Below are positions 19,592 to 59,162 of a stretch of DNA of 64,000 bases, one piece after another. The translations under genes and the position numbers were made by a program. The stretch lies in sequence record NC_054913.1. One strand, 5' to 3'. Position 1 is the stretch's first letter. Each line of letters starts with the position of its first letter. Origin of the DNA: Escherichia phage F2. A model generated the notes under the pieces. The model was not told the DNA's origin and made no database searches. It saw nothing but the letters and a program-made list of their open reading frames with translations.

Positions 19592-19984
19592 ATGGAAATC
19601 GGAAAATCTTATATCATTAACCCTTTATTTAAAGACGACTTTGTTCAAGAAGCACCACACAATAACGCTAAGATGTTAAAATTGATTGAACTCCACGGGC
19701 CTAGTTTTGTTGTAAACGGAATGGAACCTGATTATGATAGCGATACGTCAAACGTAGTAAGTGTAACTATGGAAGATGGTACTGTATGTTCTGCCGGTGG
19801 TGGAATTGAAACTTATTTTGAGATTTATCCTGACGAGTTCAAATACTTTATTGAGGTAGATTTAGTAAAGCCTCAACCTACTAACGAAGGTATAACTTTA
19901 GGTGTAACAAAAATCCATTGTATCGTAGACGAAACCAACGTCGACGAAATCATCAAACTTTTGCAAAAAACTTTTAAAAAGTAG
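19592..19984 (+). CDS. hypothetical protein (frd-upstream accessory ORF)
   Basis: 130-aa ORF with RBS GAGGAAA. Confidence 0.5.
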   Translation: MEIGKSYIINPLFKDDFVQEAPHNNAKMLKLIELHGPSFVVNGMEPDYDSDTSNVVSVTMEDGTVCSAGGGIETYFEIYPDEFKYFIEVDLVKPQPTNEGITLGVTKIHCIVDETNVDEIIKLLQKTFKK

Positions 19985-24142: not shown

Positions 24143-24898
24143 AGTACACAGACCGTTAATAAATAATCCATAACAAGAGGAAAAGTTATGGATTATTCTA
24201 AAATTTACAATAACCTTATTTCTAAAGCTAAGAACAGAAAATTAGATTGCTATACCGAATCACATCATATTATACCTCTGTGTATTGGTGGTTCTGATAC
24301 AAAGGAAAACCTGGTAGATTTGACACCAGAAGAGCATTACATAGCTCATCAATTATTAGTAAAGATATATCCAGATAATCATAAATTGATATTTGCCGCT
24401 AATATGATGTGTGTTTATTCTGAAGATAATATTGAACGAAAGAACACCAATAAACGACATGGGTGGCTTAGAAGAAAATTGGCTATTTCTGTATCTGAAA
24501 ATAATAAAGGCAAACCGGCCTGGAACAAAGGTATTCCTATGTCTCCAGAAGTTAAATCTCGACTTCAAACAACTTGGGTATTTACTTTCCCGGACGGTCA
24601 TGAAGAAATCCATAAAGGCCTAAGAGAATTTTGCGAACTACATTCACTCAATGCTTCGGCAATGTCGGCCGTATGCAAAGGCAAAAGGTCTCAACATAAA
24701 GGCTTTAAGTGTCGAAAGCTTGATAATATCTCTGAAAACGATAATCAAGAATACGTCAGTAAACCTCATCCAAAGGGATTAAAACCTCATAACTTAATTG
24801 CTGTAAAAATAAACGGTATAGAATATCAATCAATACATCGAGCATCTAAAGCTTTAGGAATTACTAGAAAAAAGGTAGAAGAATTAAATGAATATTGA
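24143..24898 (+). mobile_element. free-standing HNH homing endonuclease cassette inserted within nrdA
   Basis: HNH ORF with own RBS between the two nrdA fragments. Confidence 0.75.
24188..24898 (+). CDS. HNH homing endonuclease (MobE-like)
   Basis: 236 aa; HHIIPLCIGGSDTKENLVDLTPEEHYIAH HNH motif; RBS AAGAGGAAAA. Confidence 0.8.
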   Translation: MDYSKIYNNLISKAKNRKLDCYTESHHIIPLCIGGSDTKENLVDLTPEEHYIAHQLLVKIYPDNHKLIFAANMMCVYSEDNIERKNTNKRHGWLRRKLAISVSENNKGKPAWNKGIPMSPEVKSRLQTTWVFTFPDGHEEIHKGLREFCELHSLNASAMSAVCKGKRSQHKGFKCRKLDNISENDNQEYVSKPHPKGLKPHNLIAVKINGIEYQSIHRASKALGITRKKVEELNEY

Positions 24899-32635: not shown

Positions 32636-33628
32636 ATGTTACCTGTCATCAGAAAACTTATTTCTCCAAAAGAACTGGCTGAGATTATTCCTTTGTCGGA
32701 AGCTTACGCATCACAAGTGGCTTCTCATCGCGAACAAGTTAATTCGATTATGAACGGTGAAGACCCACGCAAACTTATTGTTGTAGGTCCTTGTTCAATT
32801 CATGACCCTATTGCTGCTGTTGAATACGGCAAACGTCTGGCTGAACTTCAAACTCGTCTTCCTAATGTTCTGTTAGTGATGCGCGTTTATTTTGAAAAGC
32901 CTCGAACTACCGTAGGTTGGAAAGGTCTTGTAAATGATCCATATCTTGACGGAAGTTTTGATATGAACCACGGTCTTATAGTTGCACGAACATTGTGTCG
33001 TAAACTTCTACGTATGGGACTTCCATTAGCAACTGAAGTATTAGACCCATTCACGATTAAGTATCTTTCTGGTATTTTCTCATGGGTTGCTATTGGCGCC
33101 CGTACGACTGAAAGTCAGACACATCGTGAAATTGCTTCAGGTCTACCGATGTGCGTAGGCTTCAAGAACGCAACCAATGGTTCTATTAAAGTAGCTACAG
33201 ACGCGATGTATAGTGCCGCCTGGCCTCATCGGTATATGGGTATGGACGTCGATGGTACTGTAGGCATTGTTGAAGCTGAAGGTAATCAGAATACGCATAT
33301 CGTATTGCGTGGCGGGACCAACGGCCCGAACTATCATTCTTCTGATATTCAAGAAGCTTCTAACAAAGCAAGGGCAGTAGGTCTGAATCATTATGTAATG
33401 GTTGACTGTAGCCATGCAAACGCTGATGGTCATTATAGCAATCAAATTGGTATTGGTAAAAATTTAGCAGCTAATGATTTGGTCAAAGGAATTATGATAG
33501 AATCATTCCTACATGAAGGAAATCAAAAAATTTCTGATAATATGTCCTATGGCGTTTCCGTTACCGATGCGTGCATCAGTTGGGAACAAACTAAAGAGCT
33601 GTTAACTTATATTAATAAGGTTCAATAA
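32636..33628 (+). CDS. 3-deoxy-D-arabino-heptulosonate-7-phosphate (DAHP) synthase, class I alpha (AroG/AroF/AroH-like)
   Basis: 330 aa; alignable along its length with E. coli AroG: LIVVGPCSIHDP, MRVYFEKPRTTVGWKGL.NDP, AIGARTTESQ.HRE.ASGL, VGFKN.T.G.IKVA.DA, D.SHAN and E.GNQ motifs. Confidence 0.9.
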   Translation: MLPVIRKLISPKELAEIIPLSEAYASQVASHREQVNSIMNGEDPRKLIVVGPCSIHDPIAAVEYGKRLAELQTRLPNVLLVMRVYFEKPRTTVGWKGLVNDPYLDGSFDMNHGLIVARTLCRKLLRMGLPLATEVLDPFTIKYLSGIFSWVAIGARTTESQTHREIASGLPMCVGFKNATNGSIKVATDAMYSAAWPHRYMGMDVDGTVGIVEAEGNQNTHIVLRGGTNGPNYHSSDIQEASNKARAVGLNHYVMVDCSHANADGHYSNQIGIGKNLAANDLVKGIMIESFLHEGNQKISDNMSYGVSVTDACISWEQTKELLTYINKVQ

Positions 33629-35292: not shown

Positions 35293-35484
35293 TTGTCTGA
35301 TTATCGATTTGCGAATCGGTATGTTTTAGAAGTACCGCCCCGACAATTTTACGGTGTACCTCTTGAATGTTACTATCATGCGTCAGAAAAGTGTTATCTG
35401 TGTAAGTCTTGGTGGTATGATGACGAGGTTTATGGTTATCCTGTCGTTAAATATCCAAAACCTATGTTCCCCTTGAGGGCTTGA
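35293..35484 (+). CDS. hypothetical protein
   Basis: 63-aa ORF with RBS GAGGAG. Confidence 0.4.
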   Translation: MSDYRFANRYVLEVPPRQFYGVPLECYYHASEKCYLCKSWWYDDEVYGYPVVKYPKPMFPLRA

Positions 35485-35717: not shown

Positions 35718-35740
35718 GGGAGACTTCGGTCTCCCTTTTG
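35718..35740 (+). terminator. intrinsic terminator
   Basis: GGGAGAC-TTCG-GTCTCCC followed by TTTTG. Confidence 0.65.
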
Positions 35741-35772
35741 TGCGTTTAGGGCAGAAAAAGTTTAAAAAAGAT

Positions 35773-35801
35773 GTTTACTCTCCTGTAGGATGTGTTACTA
35801 T
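35773..35801 (+). promoter_or_regulatory. early promoter
   Basis: GTTTAC at 35773-35778, TACTAT at 35796-35801, conserved TATAGAC...CAA leader. Confidence 0.55.
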
Positions 35802-35842
35802 AGACTTGTACCACCTAATCAATAAAACAATCGGAGAATAAA

Positions 35843-36211
35843 ATGAAAATCAATCTGAACTCATACATCAAATGTAAAGACCACGACGGTTATAAAGCTA
35901 TCGAAATTAAAGAATTCCAGTGGATGTTATACAAAGAGCAATTTGAGTTCGTAGGTTGTATGACCCCTGAAGGTCCTTCAGATGATTTCTCTTGGAAAAT
36001 TGTGTTAGCAAACTTTTTCACAGGTGACACATACGAATTAAAAACTATTATTACCGGTAAAATTCGTTCAGAAACATATGTTGACGAAGAAACTGGTTAC
36101 TCTGAAGATGTTACATGGTATCAAAATGGACGCATTACAGCAGATAACCTGATCGAAAAAATGAAAGCCAAAGGTGTTTTAAATTTAGACAATTGGATTA
36201 AAGTTGCATAA
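35843..36211 (+). CDS. hypothetical protein
   Basis: 122-aa ORF with RBS GGAGAA. Confidence 0.5.
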   Translation: MKINLNSYIKCKDHDGYKAIEIKEFQWMLYKEQFEFVGCMTPEGPSDDFSWKIVLANFFTGDTYELKTIITGKIRSETYVDEETGYSEDVTWYQNGRITADNLIEKMKAKGVLNLDNWIKVA

Positions 36212-36215
36212 AACA

Positions 36216-36244
36216 GTTTACTTTGGTACAGGTTATGTTATTAT
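36216..36244 (+). promoter_or_regulatory. early promoter
   Basis: GTTTAC at 36216-36221, TATTAT at 36239-36244. Confidence 0.55.
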
Positions 36245-36285
36245 AGACCTGTACCAACAAACAACTTAAACATCTGGAGAATAAA

Positions 36286-36651
36286 ATGAACTACACCAAC
36301 TTCGAACGCAAATATGTTTCTAACGGTATCGCTGGTTCTATCGATATGGTTTGTTTGTGGAAGCATAAAAATGGTTCAGTATGTGAAATTGAGCAGTGCA
36401 TGACTCCTAATTATGTTTATATGCGATTTGAAAATGGCATCACTGTTTCAATCACGATGGAAGGTTCCAACTTCAAAATTGCATTAGATGACGATTTCCG
36501 TCAACGTGATTTAGGTACTCATCCTTGCTGGAACGGTGTTAATCGTAAACTTCTGGTTAAAACTTGGATTCGTCATATCCTGAGTAACCGAGCTAAACCT
36601 GAACATCTCGAAGCAATCTTTGATGTAGTTCTTAACGAATTCGATATCTAA
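36286..36651 (+). CDS. hypothetical protein
   Basis: 121-aa ORF with RBS GGAGAA. Confidence 0.5.
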   Translation: MNYTNFERKYVSNGIAGSIDMVCLWKHKNGSVCEIEQCMTPNYVYMRFENGITVSITMEGSNFKIALDDDFRQRDLGTHPCWNGVNRKLLVKTWIRHILSNRAKPEHLEAIFDVVLNEFDI

Positions 36652-36658
36652 TTTAACT

Positions 36659-36674
36659 GGGAGCTTCGGCTCCC
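36659..36674 (+). other. GC hairpin without U-tract (possible RNA stability or processing element)
   Basis: GGGAGC-TTCG-GCTCCC directly upstream of the next RBS. Confidence 0.4.
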
Positions 36675-36686
36675 ACTGAGGAAATT

Positions 36687-37301
36687 ATGTTTAAAGTTAA
36701 TACTTTTTATAAAATGAATTTTAAAAATGGGGATATTACTCCACGCCTTAAAAACATGTTCTCATATGACCTTATCGAGCCTTTTGAAGTTTTAGAAGTT
36801 ACTGATGCCGGCTCGGTTTGTGAAATTAGAACTTCTGAAGGTAAAATTTATCAGGCAGGTGTTGGTAAATTCAGTAATTGTTTTACTTTAATATTCTCGA
36901 CCGATTTAGATGAGCATTTTATTGAATGTCCTAACCCTAAGGTCCACGAAGTTCCACATCAAGAAACTAAGAAAAATGGCCCGCACGAATATACGAAGGT
37001 TGAAACTCCTCACGGCGTGATGTGGCGTCATAACTCTCCTTTTGGAAGTAAAGGAACATTTGCTCAACCGTCTAAACCGTATGACGATGAAAAATACATC
37101 GTCGTCTTTTTATCTGAACAGGGTACTCAAGACAGTGGATGCCAACGTTCCGGTTTATTGAGTGAACTTGAAGCTCATAACCAAGCACGTGAATTCGTTG
37201 AGAAAAATCCTGGTTCTGAAGCTCTAGTCATGAAAGCAATTACTCAATATATCACTGCTCAACCTGTTGTTCATCCAGTAGAAATTAATTTCGTTAAGTA
37301 G
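36687..37301 (+). CDS. hypothetical protein
   Basis: 204-aa ORF with RBS GAGGAAA; no motif recognised. Confidence 0.5.
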   Translation: MFKVNTFYKMNFKNGDITPRLKNMFSYDLIEPFEVLEVTDAGSVCEIRTSEGKIYQAGVGKFSNCFTLIFSTDLDEHFIECPNPKVHEVPHQETKKNGPHEYTKVETPHGVMWRHNSPFGSKGTFAQPSKPYDDEKYIVVFLSEQGTQDSGCQRSGLLSELEAHNQAREFVEKNPGSEALVMKAITQYITAQPVVHPVEINFVK

Positions 37302-37331
37302 TTTACATCCAAGGACGGATTAGAGTATAAT
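37301..37331 (+). promoter_or_regulatory. early promoter
   Basis: GTTTAC at 37301-37306, TATAAT at 37326-37331. Confidence 0.55.
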
Positions 37332-37355
37332 GATTTCTTTAGTAAGTGGAAAAAT

Positions 37356-37553
37356 ATGAAATTTTTAATAGCACAAACAGTTCAATTAAAAGGTGTTGGA
37401 ATTCCTGGGGTGATTTTTAAAGTTCTCCCTGAATTTAAAACCGGCGCTGGAATTATCAATGAAGCGTATGCTGTTCAATGGGTTGATTGGACTTCTGACA
37501 TACGTATGGGTAAAGAGTTATCTCCTATTAAAGGGTTGAAACATGTTGAATAA
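37356..37553 (+). CDS. hypothetical protein
   Basis: 65-aa ORF. Confidence 0.4.
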   Translation: MKFLIAQTVQLKGVGIPGVIFKVLPEFKTGAGIINEAYAVQWVDWTSDIRMGKELSPIKGLKHVE

Positions 37554-37755
37554 ATTAATCCAGAAATTGTTTGGTACGGAAATGATCGAAGTTACTTATC
37601 GTGTAACAGACTGCTCGCCTATTCATCCACAGGATGAACCGTTTATCAAGACAATTAAAATGCTTAAAAATGACGGTGGTTTATCTATTGAAGACCGTCT
37701 GCCTAGTTACGGACATTGGGCTGATGTTGAAATTATAAGTGTTAAAGATGTCTGA
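37543..37755 (+). CDS. hypothetical protein
   Basis: 70-aa ORF, coupled. Confidence 0.4.
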   Translation: MLNKLIQKLFGTEMIEVTYRVTDCSPIHPQDEPFIKTIKMLKNDGGLSIEDRLPSYGHWADVEIISVKDV

Positions 37756-38206
37756 ATTAGAAATAAGAAGCAATTTCAAATGGCCGTCATGCGCATTAAG
37801 TAATTTCGCCCAATGGCCTTTTGTTATGGATGGTATTCAATTCGGAGGACTTGAAGGATTTCTCCAAGGATGTAAGGTGAAAAATGTTGAACAACAAAGA
37901 CGTATATTTGGGCTGTCAGGACTGGCCGCACAGCAAGCTGGAAGGTCTTATGCAAGAGCTCAGGACCATGGGACTCTCTTCTGGTTAGGAGTTCCATTTT
38001 CAAGATACTCTGAAGCATGGAAAGAATTATATACAAATGCATATTTTGAAGCAGCGATCCAAAACAAGGGGTTTCGCGACGCCTTACAAGCCTCTAAAGG
38101 AAAAATTTTGAAGCACAGCATGGCCAGCCACCTAACAAAAGATGATACAATATTAACTGAAGCTGAATTTATTGATGTGTTAAACCTATTAAGAGACTCT
38201 TTATGA
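37739..38206 (+). CDS. NADAR-domain (YbiA-like, DUF1768) protein
   Basis: 155 aa; SNFAQWPF matches the YbiA FSNFAAWP motif; size matches the NADAR domain. Confidence 0.65.
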   Translation: MLKMSELEIRSNFKWPSCALSNFAQWPFVMDGIQFGGLEGFLQGCKVKNVEQQRRIFGLSGLAAQQAGRSYARAQDHGTLFWLGVPFSRYSEAWKELYTNAYFEAAIQNKGFRDALQASKGKILKHSMASHLTKDDTILTEAEFIDVLNLLRDSL

Positions 38207-39018
38207 AGCCTACTATTTTGACTGATATTGATGGTGTATGTTTAAGCTGGCAATCTGGACTTCCTTATTTTGCCCAAAAATATAATCTTCCATTAGAACA
38301 TATTTTAAAAATGATTCAGGACGAAAAATTTATTTCTCCTGGTAAACTGTTCAATACCGACGATAACCTTGGTAAACAATTAATAGAAAAATATAATAGC
38401 TCTGATTTTATTCGTTACTTAGCGCCTTATTCGGATGCTCTTCGAGTTATCAATAAACTAAAAGAAGACTATAATTTTGTAGCCGTGACGGCGCTAGGTG
38501 ATTCAATTGATGCTCGATTGAATAGACAATTTAATTTGAATGCTTTGTTCCCAGGCGCTTTTTCTGAAGTAATGATGTGTGGTCATGATTCGTCAAAGGA
38601 ACAATTATTTGAACTAGCTAAAACAAAATATAACGTGATTTGTTACGTTGACGATTTAGCTCATCACTGTGACCATGCGGCAGAAATTCTTAATGTACCG
38701 ATTTATTGGTTGGCTCGTGGTGAACGTGATGATATTCCTCGCACTGCACAACGTGTACACACGTGGGATGATATTGAATCTCGTTTGGTTTCACCCGAGC
38801 ATAATTCAGATTCAGATCGTGAAGACCTTTTAAAACGATTGGCGGATTTGCTTAAAGAATCTGGTGCAACAAGTCCAGGTGCATGGCCTAATCAAATTGG
38901 CGCTCCGTCGAATCCGTATACCTGGCGAAACCAAGGACCGACTGATATGCAGCCATGGTGGACGATTCAAAACTTTCCTTTAGATTCGTCCAAATGGACT
39001 TGGTCTACAAATTGTTAA
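38203..39018 (+). CDS. putative HAD-superfamily hydrolase (30.2-like)
   Basis: 271 aa; N-terminal LTDIDGV resembles HAD motif I (DxDG[TV]); coupled to the NADAR ORF. Confidence 0.5.
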   Translation: MKPTILTDIDGVCLSWQSGLPYFAQKYNLPLEHILKMIQDEKFISPGKLFNTDDNLGKQLIEKYNSSDFIRYLAPYSDALRVINKLKEDYNFVAVTALGDSIDARLNRQFNLNALFPGAFSEVMMCGHDSSKEQLFELAKTKYNVICYVDDLAHHCDHAAEILNVPIYWLARGERDDIPRTAQRVHTWDDIESRLVSPEHNSDSDREDLLKRLADLLKESGATSPGAWPNQIGAPSNPYTWRNQGPTDMQPWWTIQNFPLDSSKWTWSTNC

Positions 39019-58502: not shown

Positions 58503-59162
58503 ATGAATTATTTAATTTACAAAATAACCAATCTCATTAATAACAAGATTTATATTGGAGCCCATGCCACTACAGATGTTAACGATTCTTATATGGGTTC
58601 CGGGGTTAACATAGTAAAATCCATAAAGAAATACGGCTTAGAGAATTTTAAAAAGGAAATCCTTTTCAATTTCGAAACATCTGAAGAGATGTATGCTAAG
58701 GAAGCCGAACTAGTTGACGAGGCTTTTGTCATGAGAACAGATACTTATAATGCCGCCTTAGGCGGCAAGGGTAATCCTGTTATAGTAGCTTTACAGGAAC
58801 CTGGGTATCGTGAGATGTTATCCGAAAAGACAAAAGCTGGTATGACTGAAGAAGTTCGGGCCAAAATATCTAAAAAGAAATTAGGTTCTAAAGAATCTAA
58901 AGAACATCGAGAAAACAAATCTATATCAAATAAAAAGTTTTATAAAAATAGAGATTCTCATCTTAAAGGTAGAAAACTATCAGAAGAGCATAAAGCAAAA
59001 ATTAGAAAGAATTCTAATAAAGGTAAGAAATTTGTATTTGTGGATATTTCTATTAAAGGTCATGAATTTAACCACTACGATTACGCTGCCGAATTCTTTA
59101 ACGTATCCGCAAAAACTATAAGAAATTGGATTAATGAACGCGATGATTGTTTTAAGCTATAG
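58503..59162 (+). CDS. GIY-YIG homing endonuclease (Seg-like)
   Basis: 219 aa; N-terminal IYKITNLINNKIYIG...YMGSG GIY-YIG motifs, basic C-terminal DNA-binding region; inserted between capsid genes 24 and 23. Confidence 0.8.
   Translation: MNYLIYKITNLINNKIYIGAHATTDVNDSYMGSGVNIVKSIKKYGLENFKKEILFNFETSEEMYAKEAELVDEAFVMRTDTYNAALGGKGNPVIVALQEPGYREMLSEKTKAGMTEEVRAKISKKKLGSKESKEHRENKSISNKKFYKNRDSHLKGRKLSEEHKAKIRKNSNKGKKFVFVDISIKGHEFNHYDYAAEFFNVSAKTIRNWINERDDCFKL

Follow-up and report, generated by a model that had tools for sequence, protein, structure and literature searches.

A probable Mosigvirus version of the T4 early gene block 30.8–30.4 with a lineage-specific gene in the 30.6 slot

We analysed a 64,000-nucleotide stretch of Escherichia phage F2 (sequence record NC_054913.1; hereafter, the window), in which a first-pass annotation had marked five open reading frames (ORFs) of 122, 121, 204, 65 and 70 amino acids (aa), three of them with their own early promoter, as an accessory cluster between rIII and gene 30. 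The phage is a Mosigvirus, an RB69/JS09-like T-even phage whose DNA is 99.1% identical to that of Escherichia phage vB_EcoM_JQD51 and 97–98% identical to that of JS09 and HX01. All five ORFs were recovered at exactly the reported coordinates on the plus strand, each T4-type early promoter motif (35773, 36216 and 37301) was found where it had been placed, and the block does occupy the T-even accessory region that runs from rIII to gene 30 (Table 1). The region is also plastic, as had been proposed, with different gene sets in SP18, CkP1 and two metagenomic phages, and the neighbouring gene that had been read as NADAR is 30.3, the published anti-DarTG1 gene adfN. In pairwise Nei–Gojobori comparisons with ATK47, JS09, HX01, moskry, SSE1, RB69, T4, SP18 and the two metagenomic phages, dN/dS was 0.03–0.36 for all five ORFs at full length; the sole higher value (0.49) came from residues 1–95 of the 204-aa protein against L006, a divergent partial match. 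All five are annotated coding sequences in JS09, HX01, moskry and SSE1, are devoid of hydrophobic segments and match the rest of the genome in GC3. These substitution patterns indicate that the five ORFs are real genes under purifying selection. A 63-aa ORF at 35293–35484 was rejected as a sixth gene, having no family match, no annotation in relatives and a dN/dS of 0.4–0.9.

Table 1 Features of the block and its flanks (window coordinates; domains of the 204-aa protein also in residues).
Feature	Position	Strand	Description
Intrinsic terminator after 30.9	35718–35742	+	GGGAGAC-UUCG-GUCUCCC then UUUUGUG
Cassette copy 1, upstream of 30.8	35757–35847	+	Direct repeat D1, 91 nt; A-rich UP region, −35 GTTTAC 35773–35778, −10 TACTAT 35796–35801, leader, GGAG (Shine-Dalgarno/RegB motif) 35833–35836, then ATG
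30.8	35843–36211	+	122 aa
Cassette copy 2, upstream of 30.7	36200–36290	+	Repeat D1; GTTTAC 36216–36221, TATTAT 36239–36244, GGAG 36276–36279, then ATG
30.7	36286–36651	+	121 aa
UUCG-tetraloop hairpin between 30.7 and the 204-aa gene	36658–36675	+	GGGAGC-UUCG-GCUCCC
204-aa gene	36687–37301	+	Two-domain protein in the 30.6 slot; 'gp30.6A' in the JS09 annotation
N-terminal domain, residues 1 to ~85	36687–36941	+	GoF-type, LSm/SH3-like, by profile similarity
C-terminal domain, residues ~95–195	36969–37271	+	gp30.6A-type, by homologues
Third early promoter motif	37301–37331	+	GTTTAC 37301; TATAAT 37326–37331
30.5	37356–37553	+	65 aa
30.4	37543–37755	+	70 aa

The earlier statement that no ORF carries a recognisable motif does not stand: four of the five belong to named T4 families, and the fifth has a GoF-family N-terminal domain. 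The T4 counterparts of 30.8, 30.7, 30.5 and 30.4 (NP_049822, NP_049821, NP_049819 and NP_049818, respectively) share order, strand and location, from rIII/30.9 to 30.3, and the gene order of the block matches both T4 and RB69. Pfam membership was assigned on a full-length match to the family HMM above the gathering score. Gene 30.8 matched PF06019 (Phage_30_8; 6.7e-44, 149.2 bits against a cut-off of 25, profile positions 3–123 of 124) and 30.7 matched PF06919 (Phage_T4_Gp30_7; 1.3e-51, 173.8 bits against a cut-off of 27, positions 1–118 of 118). The 30.8 product (phrog_1507; pI 4.9, soluble) is, relative to T4 and RB69, a divergent allele closer to SP18, with identities of 87% to SP18, 57% to RB69 and 37% to T4 (dN/dS 0.06–0.28). 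The most constrained protein of the block is 30.7, which is 94% identical to T4 gp30.7 (dS 0.89, dN/dS 0.03) and has 48 invariant columns across seven phages; such identity argues for a conserved host target and makes 30.7 worth a host-target hunt. Sequence and profile searches of the PDB returned no relative of either protein. The same early promoter and GGAG-containing Shine-Dalgarno sequence precede 30.7 in T4, where its mRNA is a RegB substrate cut at this GGAG (PMC9409239), and the site is also present in the window phage.

Gene 30.5 (pI 9.2; phrog_1690) stands directly upstream of 30.4, as in T4, and its product is 64% identical to T4 gp30.5 over 64 of 65 residues (E 1e-27), which identifies it as the T4 30.5 orthologue at the syntenic position. 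It has its own promoter here, whereas the T4 30.5 start overlaps the 30.6 stop, and RB69, the type Mosigvirus, lacks 30.5. Gene 30.4 (phrog_2042) is, by its 49% identity to T4 gp30.4 (E 2e-21), likewise the syntenic orthologue; it shares 11 nt with the end of 30.5, and its stop codon overlaps the ATG of 30.3. Its C-terminal motif YGHWADV-x-IIS is invariant in six phages and its central segment is variable, identity being just 75–83% even to phages that are otherwise ~96% identical. Among the five genes, our literature search found functional data for T4 30.5 only: it co-purifies with and binds E. coli polyphosphate kinase (Ppk), activates and is sensed by the NLR-like bNACHT11, and has a deletion phenotype on bNACHT11 hosts (bioRxiv 10.1101/2024.12.17.629029). 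By extrapolation, the local 30.5 would also bind Ppk, at only 64% identity to the T4 protein. An identification of T2 gp6, another bNACHT11 activator, as goF was discarded, as T4 coordinates give 39.2.

The T4-type early promoter motif GTTTAC-N16-19-TAnnnT occurs 17 times on the plus (coding) strand of the window and once on the minus strand, against 1.8 ± 1.3 expected from first-order Markov shuffles, and is therefore strongly non-random. A generic sigma-70 scan gave no enrichment in the block (15 found, 13.9 expected), and a scan for MotA boxes (middle promoters) found none on the plus strand inside it. The terminator after 30.9 (RNA fold −14.7 kcal/mol, z −4.4), which is likewise annotated in ATK47, is kept in T4 and SP18 through compensatory changes (GGACUCC-UUCG-GGAGUCC); lying 31 nt upstream of the 35773 promoter, it forms with it a terminator-plus-promoter cassette. 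The promoters at 35773 and 36216 stand in the two copies of repeat D1, which are 74% identical. A stem-loop at 36223–36257 (15 pairs, −18 kcal/mol, z −4.7) spans the −10 box of the 36216 promoter, and this promoter-plus-stem-loop core is invariant in T4, RB69, SP18 and L006 despite a flanking 30.8 coding sequence that is only 37% identical to T4. The hairpin that follows 30.7 (−13.1 kcal/mol, z −2.9) has no U-tract. Last, the 37301 promoter begins on the final base of the stop codon of the 204-aa gene, fits 11 of 12 sigma-70 consensus positions and has a spacer resembling those of further early promoters in the window, such as the one at position 160; RNA folding gave no significant stem-loop at 37301 (z −0.4). 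Neither T4 nor SP18 has this promoter; in both, the stop codon of 30.6 overlaps the start of 30.5 (TAATG).

Extrapolating from T4, we infer that, in the initial minutes of infection, host sigma-70 RNA polymerase would start at these three promoters. The 35773 promoter would serve 30.8; the 36216 promoter would serve 30.7 and, by read-through of the hairpin, the 204-aa gene downstream, with no terminator U-tract between; and the 37301 promoter would serve 30.5 and 30.4 and run on into 30.3/adfN and further genes. In the 30.8 and 30.7 messages, the GGAG of the Shine-Dalgarno sequence would be the target of RegB, a phage nuclease that shuts off early mRNAs.

The 204-aa protein had been called the largest uncharacterised product in the window, a title that passes to gp30.2 (38203–39018, 271 aa), whose HAD match is sub-threshold (E 0.013, 16 bits against a cut-off of 23.8). 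It is acidic (pI 5.8) and falls into phrog_17531 (3.6e-145), with a second match to phrog_622 (2.3e-5; N-domain alone, 6.6e-5), of which T4 GoF is a full-length member (4.6e-38). With hhalign, the family alignment matched T4 GoF at a probability of 87.8% (E 3.3e-6, residues 2–71 against GoF 5–90), and the sister proteins P0008 and phi92_gp003 did so at 91.1% (E 1e-6); BLASTP gave E 0.001 and 30% identity over 50 residues. This profile similarity over ~70 residues, at hhalign probabilities of 88–91%, below 95%, points with modest confidence to membership of the N-terminal half in the T4 GoF family. The family is small (2, 6 and 10 clusters in word-indexed searches, 8 in an exhaustive representative search) and its alignment consequently shallow. 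An AF2 model from the single sequence was unusable (pLDDT 34), whereas one built on a 13-sequence alignment was partly usable, with moderate confidence in the N-domain (pLDDT 50–78) and pLDDT below 50 at linker residues 85–90. The closest structural neighbours are SH3 domains of the FeoA/IdeR type, not Hfq. A Foldseek search of the PDB returned nothing at E ≤ 0.001, and sequence and profile searches of the PDB with the family returned nothing meaningful.

Homologues of the N-domain stop at residues ~84–94 and those of the C-domain start at ~80–95, which indicates a linker followed by a second domain, the layout seen in the GoF/Frd.2/MotB.1 group, early proteins with an LSm-like fold (Kim et al. 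2025, PMC12152347). In that group an N-terminal LSm/SH3-like bent sheet of five antiparallel beta-strands is joined by a flexible linker to a C-terminal domain whose structure varies. The 204-aa gene, which was compared directly with GoF, occupies the 30.6 slot rather than the goF, frd.2 or motB.1 loci, and the ORF at the Frd.2 position (19592–19984) had no significant similarity to the 204-aa family. The C-domain matched free-standing proteins of 118–152 aa (2e-23 to 1e-18), which lie between 30.9 and 30.8 in SP18, CkP1 and L008. Residues ~95–195 are 45–66% identical to gp30.6A of TuIa and SP18 (ADO19562) and to CkP1_0226, with a shared GTQDRGCQRSGL loop, an NPGGEA motif and the same rIII-to-30 region. 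Unlike the 204-aa protein, these relatives, of 116–152 aa, have no GoF-like N-domain, and in SP18 and CkP1 gp30.6A directly follows 30.9 (in SP18 it also directly precedes 30.8) rather than 30.7. The conserved loop E-x-G-T-Q-D-x-G-C-Q-R-S-G-L of the C-domain contains the invariant Cys152 and could be a catalytic or redox site. No relation of the C-domain to the C-terminal domain of GoF was detected (hhalign probability 0.4%). Were the C-domain homologous to the C-terminal region of P0008/phi92_gp003, these proteins would form a single family carrying an insertion; hhalign gave a probability of 2%, and because this link is not established we treat the 204-aa protein as a domain fusion. A frameshifted copy in phage G2469 suggests that the gene is dispensable.

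We then compared the occupants of the 30.6 slot. A reading of the 204-aa protein as a long form of gp30.6 was discarded (BLASTP E 1.6 against T4 and 3.3 against RB69); gp30.6 belongs to phrog_2153, and no 30.6 homologue was found anywhere in the window. The 30.6 genes of T4 and RB69 share with the 204-aa gene the slot, the upstream hairpin, the Shine-Dalgarno sequence and the first two codons (ATG TTT), yet encode 93–95 aa; SP18 also retains a T4-type 30.6. The 204-aa allele was found in 112 phage genomes, all of the Mosigvirus type; counted as phage records, it appears in about 112–119, against 755 with the T4-type gene. The 204-aa gene is a replacement in one Mosigvirus sub-lineage. On the left, near-identity between the window and RB69 extends across the 3′ end of 30.7, the hairpin, the Shine-Dalgarno sequence and ATGTTTA, after which the two diverge completely; on the right, the border is the 37301 promoter, present only with the 204-aa allele. 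In L006 the slot is taken by another GoF-like protein, P0008, and in L008 and CkP1 by members of phrog_8920; an occupant with a GoF-type N-domain was found in four of the six lineages examined, whereas T4 and RB69 carry the unrelated 30.6.

Because these borders coincide with conserved regulatory DNA, the 204-aa gene most likely arrived by homologous recombination between cassettes, as judged from where homology ends. The arrangement resembles the PeSL (promoter-early stem-loop) cassettes known from T4-type phages (Arbiol et al. 2010, PMC2839356; Comeau et al. 2014, PMC4122927) in that the early promoters match the published T4/PST consensus TTTACW-N17-TAYWAT and have AT-rich upstream regions, stem-loops adjoin or overlap the promoter, repeats of ~90 nt flank an accessory gene, and the elements stand at the border of a replacement between close relatives. 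Taken as an intergenic promoter with an AT-rich upstream region and a stem-loop, a PeSL is present at two of the three promoters (36216 and 35773); 37301, having no stem-loop, is not a full PeSL. The case differs from described PeSLs in that the left border of the swap is a hairpin and Shine-Dalgarno sequence without a promoter, and in being known here from sequence alone. Gene 30.8 is itself a mosaic allele, flanked by the 91-nt repeats.

Taken together, the block is probably the Mosigvirus version of the T4 immediate-early, non-essential block 30.8–30.7–(30.6 slot)–30.5–30.4. In T4, the orthologues are expressed early, both as RNA and as protein (PMC9697503, supplementary files 4 and 6), and are non-essential on K-12 (HIDEN-SEQ, supplementary file 7). 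With four known T4 genes and one lineage-specific swap-in, the block is ordinary and adds one modest new annotation. Its five products, small and soluble, most likely work in a stoichiometric manner, as binders of host macromolecules; for 30.8, 30.7, 30.4 and the 204-aa protein, this suggestion follows from the lack of an enzyme family match in Pfam, NCBIfam, PADLOC and the PDB (NCBIfam and PADLOC held no family for any of the five). By analogy with GoF and its relatives Frd.2 and MotB.1, we hypothesize that RNA metabolism or a host factor may be the target of the 204-aa protein.

It is possible, though unlikely, that the block is an anti-defence island, in which every one of the small proteins would inhibit one given bacterial immune system and the swap in the 30.6 slot would reflect selection by differing host defences. 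The block adjoins and is co-transcribed with adfN, the inhibitor of DarTG1, the 30.4 stop overlapping the 30.3 start; gene content of the region varies among T-evens, phages that are otherwise nearly identical differ in the middle of 30.4, and dispensability of the T4 orthologues on K-12 is usual for anti-defence genes. However, no protein matched a known anti-defence or defence family. In one T4 HIDEN-SEQ comparison table, 30.4–30.8 have an adjusted p of 1.0, and the conditional hits given in the main text are limited to rIIA/B, dmd, acb1, adfN and tk.4. Moreover, the one characterised member, T4 30.5, triggers defence rather than blocking it, and the near-identity of 30.7 between T4 and the window phage is more in keeping with a conserved host target than with an inhibitor caught in an arms race.

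A role of the 204-aa protein as an RNA-directed factor, with an LSm-like N-domain binding phage or host RNA and a C-domain modulating mRNA stability or termination along the lines proposed for GoF(D25Y), is similarly doubtful. The GoF-family N-domain speaks for it, as do the published LSm-like fold and the longer half-life of the gene 41 leader RNA with GoF(D25Y) (PMC12152347), and the gene is located amid early messages that RegB regulates. In the same study, however, the RNA reporter responded little to wild-type GoF or to MotB.1, and only the D25Y mutant stabilised RNA. In our hhalign alignment, D25 of GoF falls in a segment absent from the 204-aa protein; the nearest structural neighbours, the FeoA/IdeR-type SH3 domains, are protein-interaction modules, and the acidic pI of the 204-aa protein disfavours general RNA binding.

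A further reading, which we hold to be distinctly improbable, makes the slot directly 3′ of 30.7 a dedicated exchange site for early effectors and the 204-aa chimera a new bifunctional effector: the LSm/SH3-like N-domain may dock onto a host factor or RNA, and the gp30.6A domain with its Cys152 loop may deliver an enzymatic or inhibitory activity. If true, host sensors that detect small early proteins of phages, such as the NLR-like bNACHT proteins, or else host-specific targets would drive the swapping. Finally, that some ORFs, notably the overlapping 65- and 70-aa frames, are chance frames in a regulatory spacer would suit their shortness, but appears already effectively refuted by dN/dS values of 0.05–0.36 with many synonymous changes, conservation across genera, detection of the T4 orthologues as early proteins (PMC9697503) and the deletion phenotype of T4 30.5 on bNACHT11 hosts.

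The reading as a Mosigvirus version of the T4 block thus turns five 'unknown ORFs' into four named orthologues and one annotated chimera, and indicates no new kind of system. About one-third of a T4-type genome is early 'dark matter' of this kind. For 30.5, published work on the T4 orthologue supplies both a host target (Ppk) and an immune sensor (bNACHT11), and the 204-aa protein would give the GoF/Frd.2/MotB.1 family a new locus and pair it with a new C-terminal partner. The block also offers a clean natural case in which regulatory cassettes border a gene replacement.

The 4.3 kb around the block share 99.1% identity with Escherichia phage vB_EcoM_JQD51 and 96–98% with JS09, HX01, ATK47 and ~120 further genomes assigned to Mosigvirus, the genus of RB69-like T-even phages. 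On the + strand the genes run DAHP synthase, cd, 31.1, 31, rIII, 30.9, the five ORFs, 30.3, 30.2, 30.1 and, last, gene 30 (DNA ligase). The coordinates that the first-pass annotation gave for the five ORFs matched exactly. In a codon-level comparison with ten relatives, all five showed dN/dS values of 0.03–0.36 over their full length and plentiful synonymous change (30.7 versus T4: dS 0.89, dN 0.030), and are therefore protein-coding genes under purifying selection. The sole higher value, 0.49, came from a very divergent partial match between the N-domain of the 204-aa protein and the metagenomic Mosigvirus locus L006. A 63-aa ORF with a TTG start between rIII and 30.9 gave dN/dS values of 0.4–0.9, had no family match and no annotation in relatives, and its homology was truncated in ATK47, RB69 and moskry; it is probably not a gene but variable non-coding spacer.

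Coordinates of the block and of other features in the window
Feature	Position	Strand	Product
ORF1, 30.8	35843-36211	+	122 aa
ORF2, 30.7	36286-36651	+	121 aa
ORF3, 204-aa gene	36687-37301	+	204 aa
ORF4, 30.5	37356-37553	+	65 aa
ORF5, 30.4	37543-37755	+	70 aa
30.3 (adfN)	37739-38206	+	
Open part of 30.3'	37884-37988		34 aa
Rejected ORF, TTG start	35293-35484	+	63 aa
Early promoter upstream of 30.8	35773		
Early promoter upstream of 30.7	36216		
Early promoter upstream of 30.5	37301		
Hairpin and T-run in 204-aa gene	37081-37115	+	
DAHP synthase	32636-33628	+	330 aa
ORF after gene 32	19592-19984	+	130 aa
Probable homing endonuclease	24188-24898	+	
Probable homing endonuclease	58503-59162	+	

An initial reading that none of the five carries a recognisable motif falls, because four match T4 genes or families: ORF1 is gp30.8 (PF06019, 6.7e-44), ORF2 is gp30.7 (PF06919, 1.3e-51), and ORF4 and ORF5 are 64% and 49% identical to T4 gp30.5 and gp30.4, respectively. 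The families themselves are 'conserved hypothetical'; the published literature yielded no function for 30.8, 30.7 or 30.4, and the PDB no relatives of 30.8 or 30.7 by sequence or profile. In T4, all genes from 30.4 to 30.8 belong to the early RNA and early protein class (PMC9697503, supplements), and transposon insertions are tolerated in all of 30.1–30.9 on E. coli K-12 (HIDEN-SEQ preprint, supplementary file 7). In one HIDEN-SEQ comparison, mean read counts for T4 30.8 insertions rose from 209 to 1966 (log2 fold change +3.2), without reaching significance (p 0.19; supplementary file 7). Among the standard substrates of the endoribonuclease RegB is the T4 30.7 mRNA, cut at its Shine-Dalgarno GGAG (PMC9409239). 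Host polyphosphate kinase (Ppk) co-purifies with T4 30.5, which, like other small phage proteins, activates the NLR-related defence protein bNACHT11 directly, and T4 without 30.5 escapes bNACHT11 defence better (bioRxiv 10.1101/2024.12.17.629029). By analogy with T4, the block would be transcribed and translated early and be dispensable on K-12, RegB would target 30.7 (and, by its motif, 30.8), and 30.5 would bind Ppk and trigger bNACHT11.

Constraint differs among the block proteins. The 94% identity of 30.7 to its T4 counterpart suggests a conserved partner. Identity of the 30.8 allele is 87% with SP18, which belongs to another genus (Gaprivervirus), 57% with RB69 (same genus) and 37% with T4; its greater closeness to SP18 than to RB69 indicates a mosaic allele and horizontal exchange of this single gene. 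By comparison with phages ~96% identical overall (moskry, SSE1), 30.4 still differs by 17–25% (75–83% identity), mainly in the centre (residues ~24–37) with both ends invariant, and this segment is a candidate recombination patch or diversifying surface.

The 204-aa gene sits at the position of T4 and RB69 gene 30.6, but its product has no similarity to gp30.6 and falls in another PHROG family (phrog_17531 versus phrog_2153), and no 30.6 homologue was found elsewhere in the window. T4-type 30.6 occurs in 755 phage records and the 204-aa allele in ~112, all Mosigvirus-type and 94–99.5% identical; in JS09 it is annotated 'gp30.6A, similar to TuIa CAF21717'. Searched exhaustively with HMMER, 1.8 billion representatives yielded only eight relatives, which divide the protein in two. 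Residues ~95–195 match free-standing proteins of 118–152 aa (E 2e-23 to 1e-18), including SP18 gp30.6A and CkP1_0226, whose genes occupy another place in the same region: directly after 30.9 in SP18 and CkP1, and directly before 30.8 in SP18 and the comparison locus L008. Residues 1–84 match P0008 (146 aa), encoded in the identical slot after 30.7 in L006 and with full-length homologues (phi92_gp003) in Justusliebigvirus phages. The same-slot proteins of L008 and CkP1 are phrog_8920, also matched by the 204-aa N-domain.

The N-domain is linked to the T4 early protein GoF, a full-length member of phrog_622 (4.6e-38), which the whole 204-aa protein matches at 2.3e-5 and the isolated N-domain at 6.6e-5. 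Profile–profile comparison with GoF gave a probability of 87.8% (E 3.3e-6, residues 2–71) for the 204-aa family and 91.1% (E 1e-6) for the P0008/phi92_gp003 group; plain BLASTP of the 204-aa protein gave E 0.001. By eye, both share the pattern F-x-V-N-x-x-Y-x-F-K-N ... E-P-F-x-x-L-[DE] ... I-x-T-S-x-G. The neighbours FeoA, SloR and IdeR also occur in Kim et al. (PMC12152347). In the Tevenvirinae family described there, a flexible linker joins an LSm-like N-domain to C-terminal domains of differing structure (PMC12152347). The 204-aa protein fits this architecture and is so filed as a new GoF-family member with a gp30.6A-type C-domain. That C-domain had no detectable relation to the GoF C-domain and no demonstrable one to the C-terminal part of P0008; therefore 'domain fusion' is the better description. 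Structure matches in BFVD (E 1e-6 to 1e-3) to 145–190-aa proteins of phAPEC8, phiR1-RT, CC31, S16, PM2 and others suggest a wide two-domain superfamily of uncharacterised members in large myoviruses.

Several observations adjoin this family. Citrobacter phage CkP1 has a run of five genes of 143–179 aa around 30.7 (L005 2402-4439, L016 2060-2521). Four match GoF-related PHROGs (3710, 622, 5804, 8920, 18504) and the remaining one is CkP1_0226, of the gp30.6A type; the same superfamily seems to have expanded locally. The ORF after gene 32, in the frd.1–frd.3 position, begins MEIGKSYIINP... and may be a homologue of Frd.2, another GoF-family protein; its hhalign comparison with the 204-aa family fell short of significance (E 0.021). 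In vB_EcoM_G2469 (MK327934, protein P0002) the 204-aa gene is split, annotated at 115 aa and covered by tblastn only in two pieces; this natural frameshift suggests that the phage can do without the gene, at least in culture. In the window, codons ~132–143 of the 204-aa gene contain a hairpin resembling a terminator, with a T-run after it (ATGACGATG...CATCGTCGT CTTTTTAT); a scan for such elements found 5 sites versus 3.2 expected, so this one may be due to chance.

At the left border of the replacement, window and RB69 DNA stay near-identical up to the 3' end of 30.7 and on across a UUCG-tetraloop hairpin and the Shine-Dalgarno sequence into the gene itself, where all similarity is lost after the first seven bases (ATGTTTA). 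On the right, the 37301 promoter lies directly 3' of the gene, followed by 30.5; T4 and SP18 have no promoter there, and in them the stop codon of 30.6 and the start codon of 30.5 overlap; RB69 has lost 30.5. Judged by where homology ends, the gene was probably replaced by recombination.

The three early promoters proposed earlier hold up: each GTTTAC has a -10 hexamer 16–19 nt downstream. A generic sigma-70 scan showed no enrichment in the stretch (15 found versus 13.9 expected); GTTTAC-N16-19-TAnnnT occurred 17 times on the coding strand of the window and once on the other, versus 1.8 in shuffles, and fits the published T4-group early promoter cassette consensus TTTACW-N17-TAYWAT (PMC4122927). 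Two 91-nt direct repeats (74% identical), each covering UP region, promoter, leader, GGAG Shine-Dalgarno and ATG, flank 30.8. The cassette upstream of 30.7 contains a 15-pair stem-loop across the -10 box (-18 kcal/mol, z -4.7) and is invariant in T4, RB69, SP18 and L006 despite the highly diverged adjacent 30.8 coding sequence. A terminator lies 31 nt upstream of the 35773 promoter, its stem carrying compensatory changes in T4 and SP18. These features match promoter-early stem-loop (PeSL) cassettes, proposed mediators of modular shuffling in T4-type hyperplastic regions (PMC2839356, PMC4122927), but incompletely, because the 37301 promoter has no stem-loop.

Downstream, 30.3 matches Phage_30_3 (PF08010, 4.2e-69) and is 95% identical to the T4 protein adfN, a NADAR enzyme that undoes the ADP-ribosylation of DNA by DarT1 (HIDEN-SEQ preprint). 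It had no match to the Pfam NADAR model, and the assignment as NADAR and anti-DarTG1 (adfN) comes from the T4 30.3 literature. Its start is likely ATG 37748, overlapping the 30.4 stop, rather than GTG 37739. Of the internal out-of-frame T4 ORF 30.3' (75 aa) only 34 aa are open, and its tblastn match (68%) merely mirrors 30.3 conservation, so a conserved gene is unlikely.

Elsewhere in the window, the AroG-type DAHP synthase (phospho-2-dehydro-3-deoxyheptonate aldolase) gene directly upstream of cd, its stop overlapping the cd start, is annotated identically in ATK47; T4 and RB69 have cd.1/cd.2 there. It appears to be an auxiliary metabolic gene serving the synthesis of aromatic amino acids. 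An I-HmuI NUMOD-like domain (7.7e-8) is present in one of the two probable homing-endonuclease genes; the other has a weak SegE GIY-YIG match (9.3e-5, below cut-off).

The five proteins are small and soluble, without hydrophobic segments (pI 4.9–9.2), and none carries an enzyme signature. They probably act early in infection by binding host components; an anti-defence role, favoured by the first-pass annotation, is possible but less likely. The 204-aa protein may combine an LSm/SH3-like docking domain with an effector domain, in which the loop of the invariant Cys152 is the obvious site to mutate. Together, these results describe a real, well-conserved and largely already annotated accessory block; what is new is which domains the 204-aa gene encodes, where it came from and how its replacement site is built.
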